Shown here piece after piece: positions 54,825-61,457 of a stretch of 64,000 nt of DNA. Both the position numbers and the translations under genes were made by a program. Each line of letters opens with the position of its first letter. Position 1 is the first letter of the stretch. A model generated the notes under the pieces. It had not been told where the DNA came from. It did no database searches and saw nothing but the letters and a program-made list of their open reading frames with translations. Source of the DNA: Candidatus Moranbacteria bacterium GW2011_GWC2_40_12 (lineage in GTDB: Bacteria; Patescibacteriota; Minisyncoccia; Moranbacterales; UBA11712); the NCBI GenBank assembly GCA_000995965.1, contig LBYD01000001.1:76923-140922 (forward strand), given 5' to 3'.

Positions 54825-55664
54825 ATGCAAAAAGAAAATCCGGAATTTTATCGGAAAAATCAAAACAAAATTTTTATTCTGGGGTTTGTCCTGATTTTAG
54901 CCGTGATCAGCTGGTCTTTAGTCCGGCCGATTATCTTCAAAAATACCCAAAAAGAAGAAAAAGATTCAAAAATAAATGAAGAGATTCTCAAAGCTCCATT
55001 GATTACTTTGAAAGAATTTTCCGAAAAAATTAGGGACAACGAAAAACTGTTCATCGTCGATCTCCGAAACGCCGGTGATTTTTCCGCGGGGCATATAGCC
55101 GGTGCAATAAATTTTCTGCCCGGAACAGGCCTGGCAGATCAAATCAAAAAGGCCGGTGCTGAAAATACGACCAACATTGTTATCGTGAATAAAGGCGAAA
55201 ATGTTTTTGAGGCTGCCGAAGCGGCTAATGATATCATTGCCGCGGGTTTCGTGAATGCGAAATATCTTCGCGGGGGAATAACGGACTGGCGCAATGAAGG
55301 TTATACTTTGGTTTCAGGAGGAAATTCTCCAGGCGATCAAAGCAAAATAAAAAAAATAACAGTTGAAAAATTAGCCAGTGAACTTTCAGGCGGAGACGAA
55401 CTTGTCCAATTTATTGATATAAGAGACAAAGAAAAATTCAATCAAGGCCACATACCAAGGTCAATCAATCTTCCGCTTCCCCATCTTGAATCAAACCAGA
55501 AAGCCATTTCTCCCGTAAAAAAAGCAGTTGTTTATGGTGAAAACGAGGAAGAAGCGAGCAAGGCGGCAGTGATTCTATTCGACCTGAATTTTTTCAATGT
55601 CTATGTTCTTGACGGCGGATTGGCATCCTGGAAAAACAATAACGGAAAAATAGTGAGCGACTGA
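54825..55664 (+). CDS. Membrane-anchored protein with two rhodanese-homology domains (no catalytic Cys visible)
   Basis: A TM helix is followed by two domains: FIVDLRNAGDFSAGHIAGAINF and FIDIRDKEKFNQGHIPRSINLP. The active-site loop positions read VNKGENV and VYGENEE. Confidence 0.72.
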   Translation: MQKENPEFYRKNQNKIFILGFVLILAVISWSLVRPIIFKNTQKEEKDSKINEEILKAPLITLKEFSEKIRDNEKLFIVDLRNAGDFSAGHIAGAINFLPGTGLADQIKKAGAENTTNIVIVNKGENVFEAAEAANDIIAAGFVNAKYLRGGITDWRNEGYTLVSGGNSPGDQSKIKKITVEKLASELSGGDELVQFIDIRDKEKFNQGHIPRSINLPLPHLESNQKAISPVKKAVVYGENEEEASKAAVILFDLNFFNVYVLDGGLASWKNNNGKIVSD

Positions 55665-55683
55665 CAGTTTAAAGCCGAGCCTT

Positions 55684-55712
55684 AAAAAAAATCCCGCGGA
55701 AAGCGGGATTTC
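55684..55712. terminator. Bidirectional terminator (strong for groES on the minus strand)
   Basis: ATCCCGC ggaaa GCGGGAT, with A7 upstream (T-run on the minus strand) and TTTCAAAAT downstream. Confidence 0.7.
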
Positions 55713-55735
55713 AAAATGCTTGGCTTTTGTTGTCT

Positions 55736-56011
55736 CTATTTTACTATTGCCAAAATGTCCTCGTTCTTGACCAAAAGATATTCAGCTTCCCCGATCTTGA
55801 TTTCATTTCCGGAATATTTCGAATAGATCACCTTTTGTCCGGCCTTCACTTTGATTTTTTTATCCATTCCGACGGCGATAACAACACCTTCCTGCGGCTT
55901 TTCTTCACTTGTGTCGGGAAGGACGATGCCGGAAGCGGTTTTCGAGTTTGATTTCGCGGGTTCAATCAGGACGTTCTCGCCTAGAGGTTCAATATTGGGT
56001 TTTTTTGCCAT
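55736..56011 (-). CDS. groES: Co-chaperonin GroES
   Basis: LGENVLIEP…KTASGIVLPDTSEEKPQEGVVIAVG…KVIYSKYSGNEI. Confidence 0.92.
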   Translation of the reverse strand: MAKKPNIEPLGENVLIEPAKSNSKTASGIVLPDTSEEKPQEGVVIAVGMDKKIKVKAGQKVIYSKYSGNEIKIGEAEYLLVKNEDILAIVK

Positions 56012-56051
56012 GGCTTTGAAAAATTATGATTAGCTGTTTTGGAAAAATTAT

Positions 56052-56303
56052 TTAAACCATTCTTTTTTTCGTGAATTCTTCAATTTTCGCGTCGGGCTGG
56101 ATACCAACTGTTTTTTTTCTCTCAATAATGAATATATATATTATTTCAAGGATTCCGAGGGTGTTTAGGAGCAAAAGTGCTATAAACCAAATCATTTCGC
56201 CTTGTCTGGCCGATTTCCACAGTGCAATTCCTTTCCAGACAAGGGTCCAGATGATGAGCGGAATCAGAATCAAATAATTGTTGAGCAGCGATGTTAGATC
56301 CAC
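56052..56303 (-). CDS. Small two-helix membrane protein (DUF5652-like), GTG start
   Basis: LVWKGIALWKSARQGEMIWFIALLLLNTLGILEIIYI is a pattern I recall from small CPR membrane proteins. No Shine-Dalgarno sequence was seen. Confidence 0.6.
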   Translation of the reverse strand: MDLTSLLNNYLILIPLIIWTLVWKGIALWKSARQGEMIWFIALLLLNTLGILEIIYIFIIERKKTVGIQPDAKIEEFTKKRMV

Positions 56304-56367
56304 AGAAAAAAATTAAACACGAGGGTTATATCTATTGCACCCCATTAGAGTACTTTTTGGATTCACT

Positions 56368-56625
56368 TTAGGCTTCTTTGACTTTAAAAACAGTGGCTCC
56401 TTCTTTTGTCGGACTTGGCACCTTGATCGCAATCTCTTCGCCCTTTTTTCCTTTGCTGACGGGCTCATGGTTGAGCTGGATCGAATCAGCTTTGAGCTCA
56501 AATTCATTGTCTCCTTTCACGAATTTGAGCGGATCCCCCGCCTTGACGACTTTCGACAGTTTCACGACAGCTACCATCGCCTTGTCAAAATAATGAACCA
56601 CTTTTCCGATTTCTTGATCGGCCAT
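56368..56625 (-). CDS. Small beta-rich hypothetical protein (85 aa)
   Basis: MADQEIGKVVHYFDKAMVAVVKLSKVVKAGDPLKFVKGD… looks like a beta-barrel. Family not confidently recognised. Confidence 0.5.
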   Translation of the reverse strand: MADQEIGKVVHYFDKAMVAVVKLSKVVKAGDPLKFVKGDNEFELKADSIQLNHEPVSKGKKGEEIAIKVPSPTKEGATVFKVKEA

Positions 56626-56681
56626 ATTTTTGTGGTTAACGTATTCCTAATACTAGCAAACTTTCATTTTTTTTTCAACCC

Positions 56682-56710
56682 TTGAAAAATTGGGCGAATT
56701 TCAGTAGAAT
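56682..56710 (+). promoter_or_regulatory. Promoter TTGAAA-17-TAGAAT, 16 nt upstream of the truncated tRNA-Gln copy
   Basis: TTGAAA at 56682-56687, 17-nt spacer, TAGAAT at 56705-56710. Confidence 0.6.
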
Positions 56711-56726
56711 ATGAAGGTTGATATAT

Positions 56727-56781
56727 TCCGGGATCGTCTAATGGTAGGACGCCTGACTCTGGATCAGGTAATTGGGGTTCG
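56727..56781 (+). pseudogene. Truncated tRNA-Gln(CUG) copy: acceptor 5' strand, D arm, anticodon arm and the start of the T arm only
   Basis: Identical to the intact gene for 46 nt. It diverges in the T stem (TGGGG vs CTTGG), and GGTTCG is retained. No complementary 3' acceptor strand follows. Confidence 0.75.
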
Positions 56782-56820
56782 CCCGATCATCCGATCGGGC
56801 GGCCGGTCGTATGACCGGCC
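56781..56820 (+). other. Two abutting perfect 8-bp GC-rich hairpins with tetraloops
   Basis: GCCCGATC atcc GATCGGGC (56781-56800) and GGCCGGTC gtat GACCGGCC (56801-56820). They are inserted between TTC and GAATCC of a T-loop-like sequence. Confidence 0.85.
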
Positions 56821-56837
56821 GAATCCCTCAAACATGA

Positions 56838-57098
56838 ATGCATTACATTTATATTCTTTCACTAGGAAATAATAGCTTGTATAAAGGCAGGACTGATAAT
56901 ATTAAAAGGAGAGTATCAGAGCATCAGGCCGGGAAAGTGGAAGCAACCAAATATAAACTTCCAGCCAGATTAATTCACTTTGAATGCTACGTTGTAAAGA
57001 GTGATTGTATACGGCGGGAGAAATATTTAAAAACTACTGAAGGCAGAAGATTTTTAAAACAACAGTTGAGAGATTTATTTAAAAAAATTGTTGGTTAA
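56838..57098 (+). CDS. Small GIY-YIG nuclease-domain protein (86 aa)
   Basis: MHYIYIL…NSLYKGRTDNIKRRVSEH…IRREKYLK matches the GIY / YxG / R / E catalytic pattern. Its stop lies 5 nt before the intact tRNA-Gln. Confidence 0.8.
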   Translation: MHYIYILSLGNNSLYKGRTDNIKRRVSEHQAGKVEATKYKLPARLIHFECYVVKSDCIRREKYLKTTEGRRFLKQQLRDLFKKIVG

Positions 57099-57103
57099 CA
57101 TAT

Positions 57104-57177
57104 TCCGGGATCGTCTAATGGTAGGACGCCTGACTCTGGATCAGGTAATCTTGGTTCGAATCCAAGTCCCGGAGCCA
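57104..57177 (+). tRNA. tRNA-Gln (anticodon CUG), CCA encoded
   Basis: Hand fold: acceptor TCCGGGA/TCCCGGA, D arm GTCT/GGAC, anticodon arm CCTGA-CTCTGGA-TCAGG, T arm CTTGG-TTCGAAT-CCAAG, discriminator G, CCA. Confidence 0.9.
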
Positions 57178-57269
57178 CATTGTATGTTCAGCGTTTTCCA
57201 CTATGCCATTAAAGAGTGTTTAACCTCAAATAAAAGGTTATTGACTTGTAAAGAAAAATTCTGAAGTAA

Positions 57270-57294
57270 GAAACCCATCAGTTGGGTTTTTTTG
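57270..57294 (+). terminator. Rho-independent terminator after tRNA-Gln
   Basis: AACCCA tcagt TGGGTT followed by TTTTT. Confidence 0.65.
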
Positions 57295-57354
57295 GTTCGA
57301 AAATTTGGAATAAGTCCCAAGACTGTAGAACAATATTCTGGTATACTCATATAT

Positions 57355-58170
57355 ATGAAAAAAAACATTCTCATTGTCCTTGTTTTGGTTATTTTCATTG
57401 CTTTTGCATGGTGGCACTTCACTGCCACTGAAGACGAAAGAACTGGCTCGCAAAAAAACAATCAGCCAACGCTTTCCGACTATTCAACCGCGCCTGCCGA
57501 CAATGTCACTGCACCTGCAAAAAAAGTCAGGTGGAACTTTGATGGCGAAGAGTATGCTCCTTCCGGGACGCCCCGGGCATGCCCTGATCCGCTTGAGATC
57601 GAATCGCCCGTTGATGTTTCAAAAGCGTCTTCGATCCTGTATCCGGGCCAATACCGCGGTGATGATTTTAAGGCGCACGGCGGATTTAGGTTTGATGGGT
57701 ATCGGAGCGACGCCATAACCGTCACAGTGCCTCTGGATGCCCGGCTGCAAGACGCGAGCCGGTATATTGAGGATGGGCAGGTTCAATATTTATTTGATTT
57801 TATCCATGACTGCGGCATCATGTACCGATTTGATCATCTGGCAACCCTAACTCCGCGATTTGAGGCGTATGCCCGGCAATTGCCTGAAGCGAAAGTGAAT
57901 GATTCACGAACGACCCTGTTTCCCGATGATGTGTACGTCACGACGGGCGATGTCATCGCAACCAGCGTCAATCGGGAGGGTAATGTATTTGTCGATTTCG
58001 GCGTGTATGATCTGCGCCAAAAAAATGGCATAACCATTGATGAAAAAAATTCGTTGGCGAGACATGGCATCTGTTGGTTTGACCTGCTGCCCGCTTCAGA
58101 CGCGCAGAGAGTAAAATCATTACCTGCCAGCGATGAACGGTCAGGCGCGAAGAGTGAGTATTGCAGGTAA
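57355..58170 (+). CDS. Secreted/membrane-anchored hypothetical protein, G+C-richer than the genome background
   Basis: MKKNILIVLVLVIFIAFAWW anchor. The segment TTGDVIATSVNREGNVFVDFGVYD weakly recalls the LytM/M23 fold, but no HxH motif is present. Confidence 0.62.
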   Translation: MKKNILIVLVLVIFIAFAWWHFTATEDERTGSQKNNQPTLSDYSTAPADNVTAPAKKVRWNFDGEEYAPSGTPRACPDPLEIESPVDVSKASSILYPGQYRGDDFKAHGGFRFDGYRSDAITVTVPLDARLQDASRYIEDGQVQYLFDFIHDCGIMYRFDHLATLTPRFEAYARQLPEAKVNDSRTTLFPDDVYVTTGDVIATSVNREGNVFVDFGVYDLRQKNGITIDEKNSLARHGICWFDLLPASDAQRVKSLPASDERSGAKSEYCR

Positions 58171-58190
58171 ACCACCGTAACATTCGATTT

Positions 58191-59027
58191 ATGAAAAAAA
58201 CAAAACAACCAAAAATCGGTCTGGCTTTGGGTAGCGGAGCGGCGAGGGGTCTCGCCCACATTGGCGTGATAAAAGTCTTGGAAGAGAATAACATTCCAAT
58301 CGACTGCGTTGCCGGCTCCAGTATCGGCGCCGTGATTGGCGGCCTTTGGGCGTCAGGGCTGGGCATAGCAGAAATTGAAAAAATTGTTTTGGATATGACC
58401 AATCGGGATGTGTTCTCTTTGGTCGATCCTCGCATGGGGAAAGGATTTATAAAGGGAGAAAGGATAAAATCTTTCATTGAAAGCAACTTGGTGGCCAAAA
58501 ACTTCGAGGATTGCCGGGTGCCGTTTGCGGCCACCGCGACTGACATAAAAACAGGCGAAATCGTGGTTCTTCGCAGCGGGAATATAGCCGATGCCATTCG
58601 AGCCAGCATTTCCATGCCATTGGTTTTTCAACCGGTGGAAAAGGACGGAAAAACATTGGTTGATGGAGGAGTGGGAGCGCCGGTTCCGGTTGAAATTGTG
58701 CGAAAAATGGGCGCGGATATTGTTATTGCCGTCAATTTAGACAAACACTATGTGGATGATAATTGGCGATCCGGCCTGTTGGACATCGCCCATGATTCGA
58801 TGAATATCATGCGCCATTATTTATCCTTTTATCAATCAAAAGAAGCGGATATCGTCATAAATTTAGATTTGGGATCCAACAAATGGTATGATTTTGTGAA
58901 CGGACAAAATAAAATTCTGGCCGGTGAAAAAATGATGAAAAAAGAAATACCTTCTCTCAAAGAACTTATTCGCTCGAAAAGGAAAAGCAATCTCGGAAAA
59001 TTGTTTGATTTTTTTAAGAATGTTTAA
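58191..59027 (+). CDS. Patatin-like phospholipase (RssA-like)
   Basis: GLALGSGAARGLAHIGV (oxyanion Gly-rich loop), AGSSIGA (GxSxG) and LVDGGV (catalytic Asp). Confidence 0.85.
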   Translation: MKKTKQPKIGLALGSGAARGLAHIGVIKVLEENNIPIDCVAGSSIGAVIGGLWASGLGIAEIEKIVLDMTNRDVFSLVDPRMGKGFIKGERIKSFIESNLVAKNFEDCRVPFAATATDIKTGEIVVLRSGNIADAIRASISMPLVFQPVEKDGKTLVDGGVGAPVPVEIVRKMGADIVIAVNLDKHYVDDNWRSGLLDIAHDSMNIMRHYLSFYQSKEADIVINLDLGSNKWYDFVNGQNKILAGEKMMKKEIPSLKELIRSKRKSNLGKLFDFFKNV

Positions 59028-59198
59028 ATTTAAACAATTTTCCGTAAGGATACTTTTTGGAAATTGATTAAAAATTCAGACGGCGCGCCAGCTCCGCTGG
59101 CACGAAATTCGGCGACGGCGGAAAAGCGAAAGCAGGCAAAAATTCCTTCCCCCAACCCCTTTTCTTTTTGCCCGCCCGAGCGTAAAAGTTTTTCAAAA

Positions 59199-59251
59199 TT
59201 CAGCGTTCGGATTTTCGCTAAAAAAAGTTCGGATTTCGTTCAGCGTTCGGA
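59199..59251 (+). repeat. Direct repeats TTCAGCGTTCGG (59199 and 59239), interleaved with GTTCGGATTT(T)CG copies
   Basis: Read directly in the spacer upstream of the Nudix gene. The 10-mer GTTCAGCGTT also occurs at 57186-57195. Confidence 0.8.
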
Positions 59252-59260
59252 GCCAAATTT

Positions 59261-59818
59261 ATGAAATATAAATTCTGCCCAAAATGTGGAGGAAGATTGA
59301 AAATAAAGAAAGCTGCTTTTCCAAGGTTTTGGTGTTTGGATTGCGAATTTGTTTTCTACCAAAATTCGAAACCAACAGCAAGCGCCTTAATAATCGATGG
59401 AGATAAAGTGTTGCTTGGAAAAAGAAGGATCAATCCTTCAAAGGGAAAATGGGATATTATCGGCGGATTTTTGGAAGATGGAGAACATCCCGAAGCTGGA
59501 ATGAAAAGAGAAGTCCTGGAGGAAAGCGGTCTCAGAGTCCGTGTTATCGACAGACTTGATTTTATAATGGATACCTACGGAGCAGAAAAAGAATCAACTC
59601 TTAATATTACATACATTGTGAAAATTAGGAGCGGCAAAATGAAACCGGGCGACGATATTTCAGAACTGCGATGGTTCAGTATTGGAAAATATCCTAAAAA
59701 TATTGCATTCAAAAATGGGAAGCAAATGCTTCGGGATTTGAAAAGGTGGTATTCGAAAAGAAATATATATGTTCGAAGTTTTCCTCACAGCCCCAGAATA
59801 AAAAAATTACGTAACTAG
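59261..59818 (+). CDS. Nudix hydrolase with an N-terminal C4 zinc ribbon
   Basis: CPKCGG…CLDCEF, and the Nudix box GGFLEDGEHPEAGMKREVLEESGL. Confidence 0.85.
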   Translation: MKYKFCPKCGGRLKIKKAAFPRFWCLDCEFVFYQNSKPTASALIIDGDKVLLGKRRINPSKGKWDIIGGFLEDGEHPEAGMKREVLEESGLRVRVIDRLDFIMDTYGAEKESTLNITYIVKIRSGKMKPGDDISELRWFSIGKYPKNIAFKNGKQMLRDLKRWYSKRNIYVRSFPHSPRIKKLRN

Positions 59819-59828
59819 TTACGTAATT
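59805..59828. repeat. Perfect 24-bp palindrome AATTACGTAACTAGTTACGTAATT between converging genes
   Basis: Read directly. The Nudix TAG stop (59816-59818) lies at the dyad centre. Confidence 0.9.
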
Positions 59829-59853
59829 GGTGCTGCACGGCAAGATAATTTAT

Positions 59854-60765
59854 TTACACCTTCAAATATCTCCTGATCGCGAGGATACTGCTGATGATAC
59901 CCAAAAAAACACCCACAAAAAGCTGGGCAATGAAGATCAAAACGAAATATCTGATGAAATCAGCCTGAATGATCTGAACATACGCCGAACCGACGACGTA
60001 GGGAGTGACAACTTTCATGATCGGATAAAGAAGAATAATCGAAATAACAGCCGCGAAAATTCCATAAATTACGCCCTCGAAAACAAAGGGCAGGCGAATG
60101 AAATTGTTTGAAGCCCCGACGAGCCGCATTATTTCAATTTCCGTTCCGTGGTTGAAAATTGTCATCCGGATGACGTTGAAAGTGATGAGAATCGCGATAA
60201 GGGAAAATAAAACGAAAAGAAACGCCCCGGTCTTTCGGATCGTTTTGATGGTCGTATTGAAGCGGTCAATAACAAGCTTATATTGCTGGTAGTTGATGCT
60301 GGCTATATTGTCCCGATAGCTTGAATTCTCAACCGATTTGGCAATAATATCATATTGCTCCGGGTTTGCGGCTTTGATGTTCACGGAGGCAAGAAGCGGA
60401 TTTTCTTCGACGGCCTCGACAGCTTTCAGGATGTCGGGTTTTCCGGCATTGGCAGCCTTGAAATCATCGAGGGCTTTGTTCTTCGAAATATATTCGGCGG
60501 CCTTGACTTCCTTGTATTTTTGAATTTCGGAACGAAAAGCCATTATGTCCTGCTCCTCAACATTGCCTTTGAAATAAACTCGAATATCAATCTTATCCTG
60601 GACATACTTGAGTCCCATATTAGCACTGATAGAAATAACCAGGATAACGCTGATGATGAGAAGCGCCAGCGTCAGAATACTGACCGCCGCCACAGTCAAA
60701 GACCCATTTCGAAAGAAATTTTGAAAACCGGACTTGAAAGTTCTGGTGAGAGTCAAAATTATCAT
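59854..60765 (-). CDS. ftsX: Cell division permease FtsX
   Basis: Four TM helices with a large first extracytoplasmic loop. It overlaps ftsE by 4 nt, and the family pattern …RLVGASNNFIRLPF… is present. Confidence 0.85.
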   Translation of the reverse strand: MIILTLTRTFKSGFQNFFRNGSLTVAAVSILTLALLIISVILVISISANMGLKYVQDKIDIRVYFKGNVEEQDIMAFRSEIQKYKEVKAAEYISKNKALDDFKAANAGKPDILKAVEAVEENPLLASVNIKAANPEQYDIIAKSVENSSYRDNIASINYQQYKLVIDRFNTTIKTIRKTGAFLFVLFSLIAILITFNVIRMTIFNHGTEIEIMRLVGASNNFIRLPFVFEGVIYGIFAAVISIILLYPIMKVVTPYVVGSAYVQIIQADFIRYFVLIFIAQLFVGVFLGIISSILAIRRYLKV

Positions 60766-61457
60766 ATGGCGTAGCGTCCTTTGCTATGATCCCTGATTAT
60801 TCTTCCTTGATCAAGGGTAATGACGCGTCTTTTGATATTATTGACGACTTCCTTGTCATGAGTGGCTAGAACCACTGTTGTTCCCAGTTTATTAATTTTC
60901 ATAAGCAGCTGGATAATTCCCCAAGCGCTGATCGGGTCAAGATTTCCAGTCGGCTCATCGGCGATAATGAGGGCCGGACGGTGAACAAGCGCCCGGGCGA
61001 TCGCCACCCGTTGCTTCTCACCGCCGGAAATTTCATGGGGATAGTTTTCCGCCTTGTTTGATAATCCCACAATTTCAAGAATTTGGGGAACGCTTTTCCG
61101 GATTTCGCTGTTTGGATAACCCGAAACTTCGAGTGCAAAAGCAACATTTTCAAAGACTGTCTTTTTTTGGAGGAGCTTATAATCCTGAAATACCGTTCCG
61201 ATACGGCGGCGATGGAGAGGCATCCCTTTCGGTTTTATGTGTGTTATGTCCTCCCCGTTGAACAATACTTCTCCCGACGAAGGTTTTTCTTCGGCATATA
61301 TCATTTTCAATATTGTTGACTTTCCCGCTCCGCTGTGGCCGACAAAAGAAACAAACTCTTTCTCATCAATGGAAAAACTGACATCATCAAGAGCGCAAGT
61401 GTTCATTATGCCGCCTGTGTATATTTTTTTTACGCTTTTAAATTCAATCATTGACAT
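60762..61457 (-). CDS. ftsE: Cell division ATP-binding protein FtsE
   Basis: GHSGAGKST, LSGGEKQRVAIARAL and IIADEPTGNLD. Confidence 0.9.
   Translation of the reverse strand: MSMIEFKSVKKIYTGGIMNTCALDDVSFSIDEKEFVSFVGHSGAGKSTILKMIYAEEKPSSGEVLFNGEDITHIKPKGMPLHRRRIGTVFQDYKLLQKKTVFENVAFALEVSGYPNSEIRKSVPQILEIVGLSNKAENYPHEISGGEKQRVAIARALVHRPALIIADEPTGNLDPISAWGIIQLLMKINKLGTTVVLATHDKEVVNNIKRRVITLDQGRIIRDHSKGRYAI

Follow-up and report, generated by a model that had tools for sequence, protein, structure and literature searches.

What fills the DNA between a glutamine tRNA gene and ftsX in Candidatus Moranbacteria bacterium GW2011_GWC2_40_12, and how did it come to lie there? The question arises from a 64,000-nucleotide (nt) stretch of contig LBYD01000001.1, referred to here as the window, in which an initial annotation had marked positions 57186-59251 as a G+C-richer islet of two genes, bracketed by a 10-nt direct repeat and left by a decayed tRNA-targeted insertion that delivered a secreted lipase module. 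The segment is probably the greater part of a 2.6-kilobase (kb) lineage-specific mosaic (57178-59797) that fills a variable slot between tRNA-Gln(CUG) and the ftsX terminator, and not a self-contained island; taken together with this, its pieces, namely a tRNA trailer (bearing a hairpin that resembles a terminator and, possibly, a tRNA 3' relic), orfA, a patatin gene, a 145-nt element and a Nudix gene, would be of separate origin. The slot is variable and its contents are mosaic, with no integrase and no tRNA-derived repeat. It is an ordinary strain-variable position beside a tRNA gene, holding accessory genes for a LytM-fold protein that probably acts on the cell wall, for a cytoplasmic phospholipase and for a Nudix hydrolase. 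The earlier interpretation is thus supported in part: an insertion is present, and a bracketed secreted-lipase module is not. Immediately upstream, the tRNA gene is rearranged around a GIY-YIG gene of a tRNA-linked family, and this neighbor, with its double hairpin, is worth more than the islet and deserves a study of its own.

The slot between tRNA-Gln and ftsX

With FtsX as a neutral anchor, nine Moranbacteria loci were compared by mapping their genes and tRNAs and reading their sequences; the FtsX of the window is 70-93% identical to those of its relatives. Two of the loci have an empty slot. In L017 (FtsX 83%), the CCA end of the tRNA is followed directly by the conserved terminator and then ftsX, and in L015 (87%) a terminator follows the tRNA after 5 nt. 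The closest relative, L014 (93%), carries 3.1 kb with four unrelated genes, comprising a major facilitator superfamily (MFS) transporter, a DUF3850-Nudix gene and two unknown open reading frames (ORFs); the DUF3850-Nudix protein is 29% identical to the Nudix protein of the window, over the Nudix box only. In L020 (74%), the tRNA and its cargo are inverted, the cargo being an AEP-like (archaeo-eukaryotic primase) gene and an MFS gene, and in L019 (75%) other genes extend for more than 9 kb 3' of the tRNA. The two annotated genes are therefore not shared at this site, and to the question whether tRNA-Gln is followed directly by the Nudix gene in relatives the answer is no, as the Nudix gene is itself absent from the site there.

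Homology with the relatives resumes at ~59798, within the last Nudix codons, and thus the block that they lack spans 57178-59797, is larger than the annotated segment and includes the Nudix gene. The end of this gene's ORF (59798-59828) falls within the ftsX terminator, a conserved palindrome (AATTACGTAACT/AGTTACGTAATT), so that the C-terminal Nudix residues are encoded by terminator DNA. As for the proposed insertion beside the tRNA, synteny confirms that the DNA 3' of tRNA-Gln is lineage-specific, although its borders differ from those described and no integrase accompanies it. The slot resembles an island in its location at a tRNA 3' end and in its absence from related genomes, starting at 57178 and being empty in L015 and L017 and different in L014. 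Neither a tyrosine nor a serine recombinase was found within or beside it: none of the genes within 10 kb has a recombinase among its recorded Pfam families, nor did a scan of the four local proteins yield one, and the suggested integrase-type mechanism is accordingly not borne out.

Two further observations concern this slot among the relatives. The AEP-like primase gene of L020 (L020:7701-8315; PF24387, 4.5e-34) lies directly 3' of tRNA-Gln in the equivalent position; primase genes are a hallmark of mobile elements. In addition, the ftsX-proximal site carries, among L014-L022 and the window (57104-57177), one or the other of two very dissimilar tRNA-Gln(CUG) genes, one Glu-like (UCCGGGAUCGUCUAAUGG...) and one canonical (UGGGGAGUAGCCAAGCGG...), in a pattern that does not track FtsX identity, and the orientation of the tRNA also flips.

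Within the window, the order of features is p85, pseudo-tRNA, GIY-YIG gene, tRNA-Gln(CTG), orfA, patatin gene, a 233-nt spacer, Nudix gene and palindromic terminator, beyond which ftsX-ftsE-prfB lie on the minus strand (Table 1). The segment had been described as starting 9 nt past tRNA-Gln and as holding two co-oriented genes (57355-58170 and 58191-59027) with long antisense ORFs. The tRNA does end at 57177, both ORFs are present, and the antisense ORFs comprise 215 residues at 57968-58615 and 141 residues at 57834-58259. The coordinates, genes and 10-mer of the original observation are thus real and it is partly confirmed, whereas its description as a G+C-richer islet bracketed by a repeat fails.

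Table 1. Features of the tRNA-Gln locus and the adjoining slot (positions in the window)
Feature	Position	Strand	Basis or remark
Promoter-like site of native tRNA-Gln, TTGAAA, 17 nt, TAGAAT	56682..56710	+	10/12 consensus matches; homologous flank in L014, L015, L017
Truncated pseudo-tRNA-Gln at native position	56726..56829	+	Rfam tRNA 30.9 bits; repeat of 66 nt, 92% identical
40-nt double hairpin	56781..56820	+	Between TTC and GAAT of pseudo-tRNA T loop
Gene for 86-residue minimal GIY-YIG nuclease, Slx1-like/UPF0213	56838..57098	+	PF01541, 6.9e-12
tRNA-Gln(CUG), functional	57104..57177	+	ARAGORN; Rfam 64.6 bits; T arm CTTGG/CCAAG; 377 nt from native position
Left 10-mer GTTCAGCGTT	57186..57195	+	Exact match
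Terminator-like hairpin AAACCCA-TCAG(T)-TGGGTTT plus T run, 3' of tRNA-Gln	57271..57293	+	Sequence reading; not listed by consensus scan
Possible tRNA-Gln 3' relic: TTGGTTCGAA, 10-nt gap, AAGTCCC	57292..57318	+	TTGGTTCGAA matches T arm 10/10
orfA, LytM/M23-fold protein with N-terminal signal/anchor helix	57355..58170	+	
RssA-like patatin phospholipase, cytoplasmic	58191..59027	+	PF01734
145-nt conserved non-coding element	59102..59246	-	Similarity to L090, L099
Right 10-mer GTTCAGCGTT	59238..59247	+	Exact match; equivalent in L090 is GTTCAGGGTG
Zn-ribbon Nudix hydrolase gene	59261..59818	+	Pfam; last codons overlap ftsX terminator palindrome
Palindromic terminator AATTACGTAACT/AGTTACGTAATT, conserved, between slot and ftsX	59805..59828	.	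Inverted repeat; comparison with L014 and L017

Composition, genes and repeats of the slot

The segment had been called visibly G+C-richer than its surroundings, which measurement does not bear out. Its G+C content is 0.453 compared with 0.433 for the window (z 1.0), ~12% of equal-sized stretches are as high, and orfA (0.496) is the only G+C-rich gene. In orfA, G+C content is high at the first and second codon positions (GC1 0.559, GC2 0.426), the value at the third position (GC3) is 0.504 (z +0.5), and the product is enriched in Asp, Ala, Val and Arg. Because GC3 is native and the excess falls in codon positions 1 and 2, the rise reflects amino-acid content and is a weak sign of foreign origin. 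The patatin gene is native by every measure (GC 0.440, GC3 z -0.1, codon-usage z +0.5, tetranucleotide z -0.4), and the Nudix gene (GC3 0.339, z -2.4) and GIY-YIG gene (GC3 0.276, z -3.5) deviate in the direction opposite to orfA, leaving GC3 unequal among the slot genes (orfA 0.50, patatin 0.47, Nudix 0.34). Tetranucleotide distance from the window has a z of 0.7 for 57186-59251 and 3.0 for orfA alone; the slot as a whole (z -0.03) does not have the un-hostlike composition of an island, and orfA deviates with a native GC3. The shift thus fails as evidence of foreign DNA, since neither gene has a foreign GC3 and the patatin gene is native throughout, and it cautions that a rise in G+C may stem from amino-acid content alone.

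The orfA product had been annotated as signal-anchored, and its AlphaFold model (pLDDT, the model's confidence score, 89) agrees, with a hydrophobic helix at the N-terminus (residues 3-24), a disordered linker and then a LytM/M23-fold domain. Searches of the sequence against Pfam, NCBIfam, PADLOC and PDB profiles gave no useful match. The homology search and structure prediction proposed for this protein were thus decided by fold comparison, sequence profiles being uninformative: the 32 best Foldseek matches to the model are all M23/LytM proteins. Residues H108, H161, D214 and D219 and two of four conserved cysteines are invariant in the alignment of homologs, and the other two cysteines are nearly so. 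By a motif reading of the same alignment, HxH is absent and VDFGVYD stands at the equivalent place. The protein therefore has the fold of M23 and lacks both the family profile match and the HxxxD/HxH zinc motifs. At E <= 0.001 there are 509 homologs, several of which carry lineage names of the Candidate Phyla Radiation (CPR) from their source. The closest outside its own cluster are 51-58% identical, with none above 58%; those examined lie in unrelated neighborhoods, and two are fused to peptidoglycan-binding domains. From its predicted structure, orfA is probably an extracytoplasmic, cell-wall-acting protein of the LytM fold, not classed as an M23 peptidase, and it is most likely exported or membrane-anchored and would bind or cut peptidoglycan outside the cell. 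The gene lies 1.7 kb from ftsEX (59854-61457), and EnvC of the FtsEX-EnvC complex is among the structural matches of its product; this proximity is probably coincidence, because the orfA product lacks a coiled coil and relatives show no linkage between the gene and ftsEX.

The second gene encodes a patatin-like phospholipase, as had been proposed. It matches PF01734 (1.3e-31, 110.7 bits against a cut-off of 27.7), and its translation contains the motifs GSGAARG (oxyanion), GSSIG (GxSxG serine) and DGG; its match to the NCBIfam RssA equivalog (1.9e-48, 165 bits) falls below the cut-off of 272. Secretion, proposed in the initial annotation, is contradicted by the translation, in which the patatin domain begins as early as residue 11, with its oxyanion motif at residue 13, leaving no room for a signal peptide. 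Identities of its homologs form a smooth series (88, 85, 84, 82 ... 70%), and four that were examined (82-85%) lie in four different neighborhoods. DNA similarity to patatin genes elsewhere (81-84%) is confined to 58182-59074 across these contexts, and the gene thus behaves as a single-gene unit. Across the patatin stop codon lies an inverted repeat of 19 nt (89% complementary; 58994-59044), and this hairpin moves with the gene, as similarity to patatin genes in other contexts reaches 59074.

Homologs of the Nudix protein are at most 79% identical; two of the three that were looked up adjoin obg or polA, and none lies beside tRNA-Gln or ftsX. No conserved pairing of orfA with patatin, or of tRNA-Gln with Nudix, was found in the other-genome neighborhoods examined. 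A single two-gene module is hard to reconcile with these histories, since orfA has no homolog above 58%, the patatin gradient starts at 88% and the contexts differ. The two genes are 20 nt apart, and they are probably co-transcribed through juxtaposition, not delivered as one module. A defense-island reading was also considered and set aside: PADLOC gave weak matches of patatin to phospholipase effectors (27 bits) and of Nudix to PDC-S07, with no recognized architecture.

The 10-mer GTTCAGCGTT occurs exactly twice in the window (57186 and 59238), as described. A 10-mer common to both spacers is near chance (P = 0.04 by shuffling, 0.10 for random same-size pairs of window segments), and the pair does not serve as brackets of the islet. 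All but one of the right copy's ten bases fall inside the 145-nt element, which is 88% identical to L090:1891-2032 and 82% identical to a sequence in L099 (L099:1819-1975), in opposite orientation; in both loci it comes just 3' of a tRNA and a terminator hairpin. The element has repeated copies of the motif CGAAA(A)TCCGAAC and a long hairpin with imperfect pairing, includes the GTTCGGA repeats and is non-coding, because the L090 copy has an in-frame stop; its consensus fold rested on three copies, which are few for judging. It has no Rfam match, and an Rfam scan of 55500-60500 at E <= 1 listed the tRNA and pseudo-tRNA and nothing in either spacer; a pattern from the core of the element had no match in viral contigs. 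A reading of the 10-mer and the GTTCGGA repeats as decayed attachment (att) sites is not supported: the repeats on the right are features of this conserved element and not att sites. The adjoining 8-mer CGGAGCCA (59248-59255) matches the tRNA 3' end and holds GGAG 8 nt before the Nudix ATG, where by its sequence it would occupy the position expected for the Nudix ribosome-binding site. A direct repeat of the tRNA 3' end at the far border is thus lacking apart from this 8-mer, which overlaps the ribosome-binding position, and the 10-mer is not tRNA sequence.

A nuclease gene and paired hairpins at the tRNA

The native position of tRNA-Gln, next to the promoter-like site, is occupied by a pseudo-tRNA whose first 47 nt are an exact copy of the functional tRNA. 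It has a T arm of its own (GGGG...CCCTC), an interrupted T loop and no 3' acceptor strand. The interruption is the double hairpin, composed of two hairpins with an 8-base-pair stem and a 4-nt loop each (ATCC and GTAT). In an alignment of 30 copies, 98% of cells are paired and compensatory changes occur in 14 of the 16 pairs, a result equaled by none of 500 shuffles. The stop codon of the GIY-YIG gene lies 5 nt before the complete tRNA-Gln. Its product matches PF01541 at 45.9 bits (cut-off 22.6) over residues 1-70 and belongs to the Slx1-like/UPF0213 group; the closest solved structures are PDB 1zg2 (2e-6) and 1ywl (3e-5), both of which have been placed in the Slx1 family (PMC1564403).

Comparison with other metagenomic loci provides evidence that this arrangement recurs. 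A metagenome scan returned 80 GIY-YIG-related loci (L026-L105), 78 of them with enough downstream sequence, and in 58 of these 78 a co-oriented tRNA follows the GIY-YIG ORF within 45 nt. The adjacent tRNAs include Gln, Ser, Ala, Met, Tyr, Gly, Lys, Thr and Arg species. An exact stretch of at least 11 nt is common to the upstream region and the downstream tRNA in 35 of the 55 testable loci, and the clearest upstream copies are 46-58 nt long, running from position 1 to ...GGTTCG. The double hairpin is present in 46 of the 80 loci, mostly at TTC^G of the T loop, and some copies interrupt the anticodon loop of tRNA-Ser(CGA), Arg(TCG), Ala(CGC) or Gln(CUG). At some loci there are, in addition, fragments of the tRNA 3' part, or tandem repeats extending from the T loop into the downstream flank. 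Exact 15-21-nt tRNA fragments lie downstream of the tRNA in L032, L035, L036, L051 and L091, and one is visible in L039. In the window, the possible relic TTGGTTCGAA...AAGTCCC lies 115 nt past the real tRNA-Gln and is weak and decayed-looking.

Tandem units running from the T loop to the tRNA 3' end plus flank are seen at L035:1843-2150, L039:1825-1910 and L051:1338-1560, some with nested hairpins. These nested and tandem repeats suggest that the T loop has been broken and repaired more than once. In databases, many members of the GIY-YIG family (proteins P0361-P0510) have 25-60 extra N-terminal residues, probably because gene calling continued through the pseudo-tRNA and hairpin region.

No relatives of the GIY-YIG gene were found in viral contigs, and the literature searched contains no description of tRNA-linked GIY-YIG genes in CPR bacteria; a nuclease-plus-hairpin element at a tRNA gene is apparently undescribed. 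The protein, with 86 residues and its domain at residues 1-70, does not have the C-terminal DNA-binding domain of a homing endonuclease. A group I intron was also considered for the interrupted tRNA and rejected, as the downstream tRNA is complete and known Patescibacteria tRNA introns lie at position 35/36 (PMC13011429).

Origin of the slot and comparison with known systems

The lineage-specific mosaic probably accumulated piece by piece, as the tRNA gene repeatedly underwent break-and-repair or recombination and as slot contents were exchanged through the conserved flanks. The tRNA gene would itself be the break site: the GIY-YIG gene, with the double hairpin in the T loop, would have duplicated the 5' part of the tRNA, its insertion would have pushed the working tRNA 377 nt downstream of the native promoter, and the gene would be expressed from the tRNA promoter. 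The GIY-YIG gene might also drive cargo turnover at the slot. Several points weigh against this account. Gain here, as opposed to loss elsewhere, is suggested by parsimony and not by a rooted tree; only four relatives are readable across the slot, all of them metagenome-assembled genomes; and the cargo of L014 differs, yet no GIY-YIG gene lies beside its tRNA. The predicted function of orfA follows from its fold only, and the canonical HxH zinc motif of M23 is missing. The patatin gene could be old in the lineage and merely relocated, because its composition is fully native.

Integrase-mediated insertion at the slot is unlikely, and in its specific form, in which a single element targeted the tRNA-Gln 3' end, brought orfA and patatin and later lost its integrase, leaving GTTCAGCGTT and GTTCGGA/CGGAGCCA as decayed att sites, it is quite improbable. 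The site is indeed a tRNA 3' end with genes that relatives lack, GTTCAGCGTT is exact and found only twice in the window, CGGAGCCA repeats the tRNA 3' end, and a primase gene occupies the corresponding position in L020. However, the 10-mer is near chance and not tRNA sequence, and its right copy lies with the GTTCGGA repeats inside a 145-nt element conserved elsewhere in opposite orientation, while the GGAG of CGGAGCCA falls where a Nudix ribosome-binding site is expected. Nor would one element account for the differing histories of orfA and patatin, for a Nudix gene beyond its supposed right end that relatives also lack, or for the absence of an integrase within 10 kb. The genes might alternatively be ancestral at the site, with the empty slots of L015 and L017 reflecting deletions in the course of CPR genome reduction and the content of L014 a later replacement. 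This alternative draws on the native composition of patatin and on its smooth homolog identity gradient, which resembles that of FtsX. It is nevertheless unlikely, given that tRNA-Gln abuts the terminator within 1-5 nt without a scar in two relatives, that orfA has no homolog above 58% where the relatives' FtsX proteins are 70-93% identical, that none of four close patatin homologs examined is at this locus, and that the slot contents of L014, L019 and L020 all differ.

Assemblers can be misled by repeats, of which the duplicated tRNA part is one, and the contig could in principle be chimeric at the tRNA through assembly or binning. The gene order is identical, however, in all 10 places listed of 24 similar ones; these 10 come from four sources (JGI, NCBI, ENA and Logan) and include contigs of 100-212 kb. 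By this agreement the arrangement is not an assembly artefact, and a chimeric contig is very unlikely.

For the neighboring nuclease, a further possibility may be put forward tentatively: the GIY-YIG gene and the covarying double hairpin could together be a selfish element, of a kind not yet described, with tRNA genes as its targets. Its paired hairpins would insert at TTC^G, in T loops or anticodon loops. The gene would settle between the tRNA promoter and a restored tRNA, leaving a truncated 5' copy and using the promoter for its own expression, and the resulting breaks would turn the tRNA loci of CPR genomes into hot spots of recombination. If so, breaks at the tRNA locus would explain the variable cargo slot, and the unit may provide a mechanism by which DNA around tRNA genes is duplicated and replaced in reduced CPR genomes. 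A 2006 survey treated stand-alone bacterial Slx1-like nucleases as mostly vertical in inheritance, with a predicted role in DNA repair (PMC1564403). Mobility of the GIY-YIG and double-hairpin unit would give these nucleases a testable role.

Known systems resemble parts of this locus. Like integrase-mediated tRNA islands, it has strain-specific genes 3' of a tRNA in a slot that differs among close relatives, one of which carries a primase; unlike them, it lacks an integrase and a direct repeat of tRNA sequence and is a single-gene mosaic of mostly native composition. The orfA product shares an export signal and conserved cysteines with LytM/M23 factors (Csd3, EnvC, DipM, SpoIIQ, lysostaphin), and some of its homologs are fused to peptidoglycan-binding domains. 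It differs in having no Pfam M23 match, 10-17% identity and no HxH, with H108, H161, D214 and D219 invariant instead. The patatin protein resembles RssA-type patatins in its oxyanion, GxSxG and DGG motifs, its length of ~280 residues and its lack of a signal peptide, and differs in falling below the equivalog cut-off and in being a single gene in many neighborhoods.

The nuclease and hairpin unit recalls the REP/RAYT and IS200/IS605 systems in its short covarying hairpins, its short specific target (here mostly TTC^G) and the adjoining small nuclease gene. Membership in these is excluded, as the nuclease is of the GIY-YIG type, not an HUH/Y1 transposase, and the targets are tRNA gene loops. 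The closest known case is SegB of phages T4 and T6, a free-standing GIY-YIG homing endonuclease encoded within tRNA gene clusters, where breaks and recombination lead to segmental amplification of tRNAs together with segB (PMC2330249, PMC13096335). Both systems combine a GIY-YIG gene among tRNA genes with partial or tandem duplication of adjoining tRNA-containing segments. In contrast to SegB, the protein described here is a predicted minimal Slx1-like/UPF0213 nuclease of 86 residues without a DNA-binding domain, and the element is bacterial-chromosomal, with no relatives found in viral contigs. It is further set apart by the conserved 40-nt double hairpin that it carries in tRNA loops.

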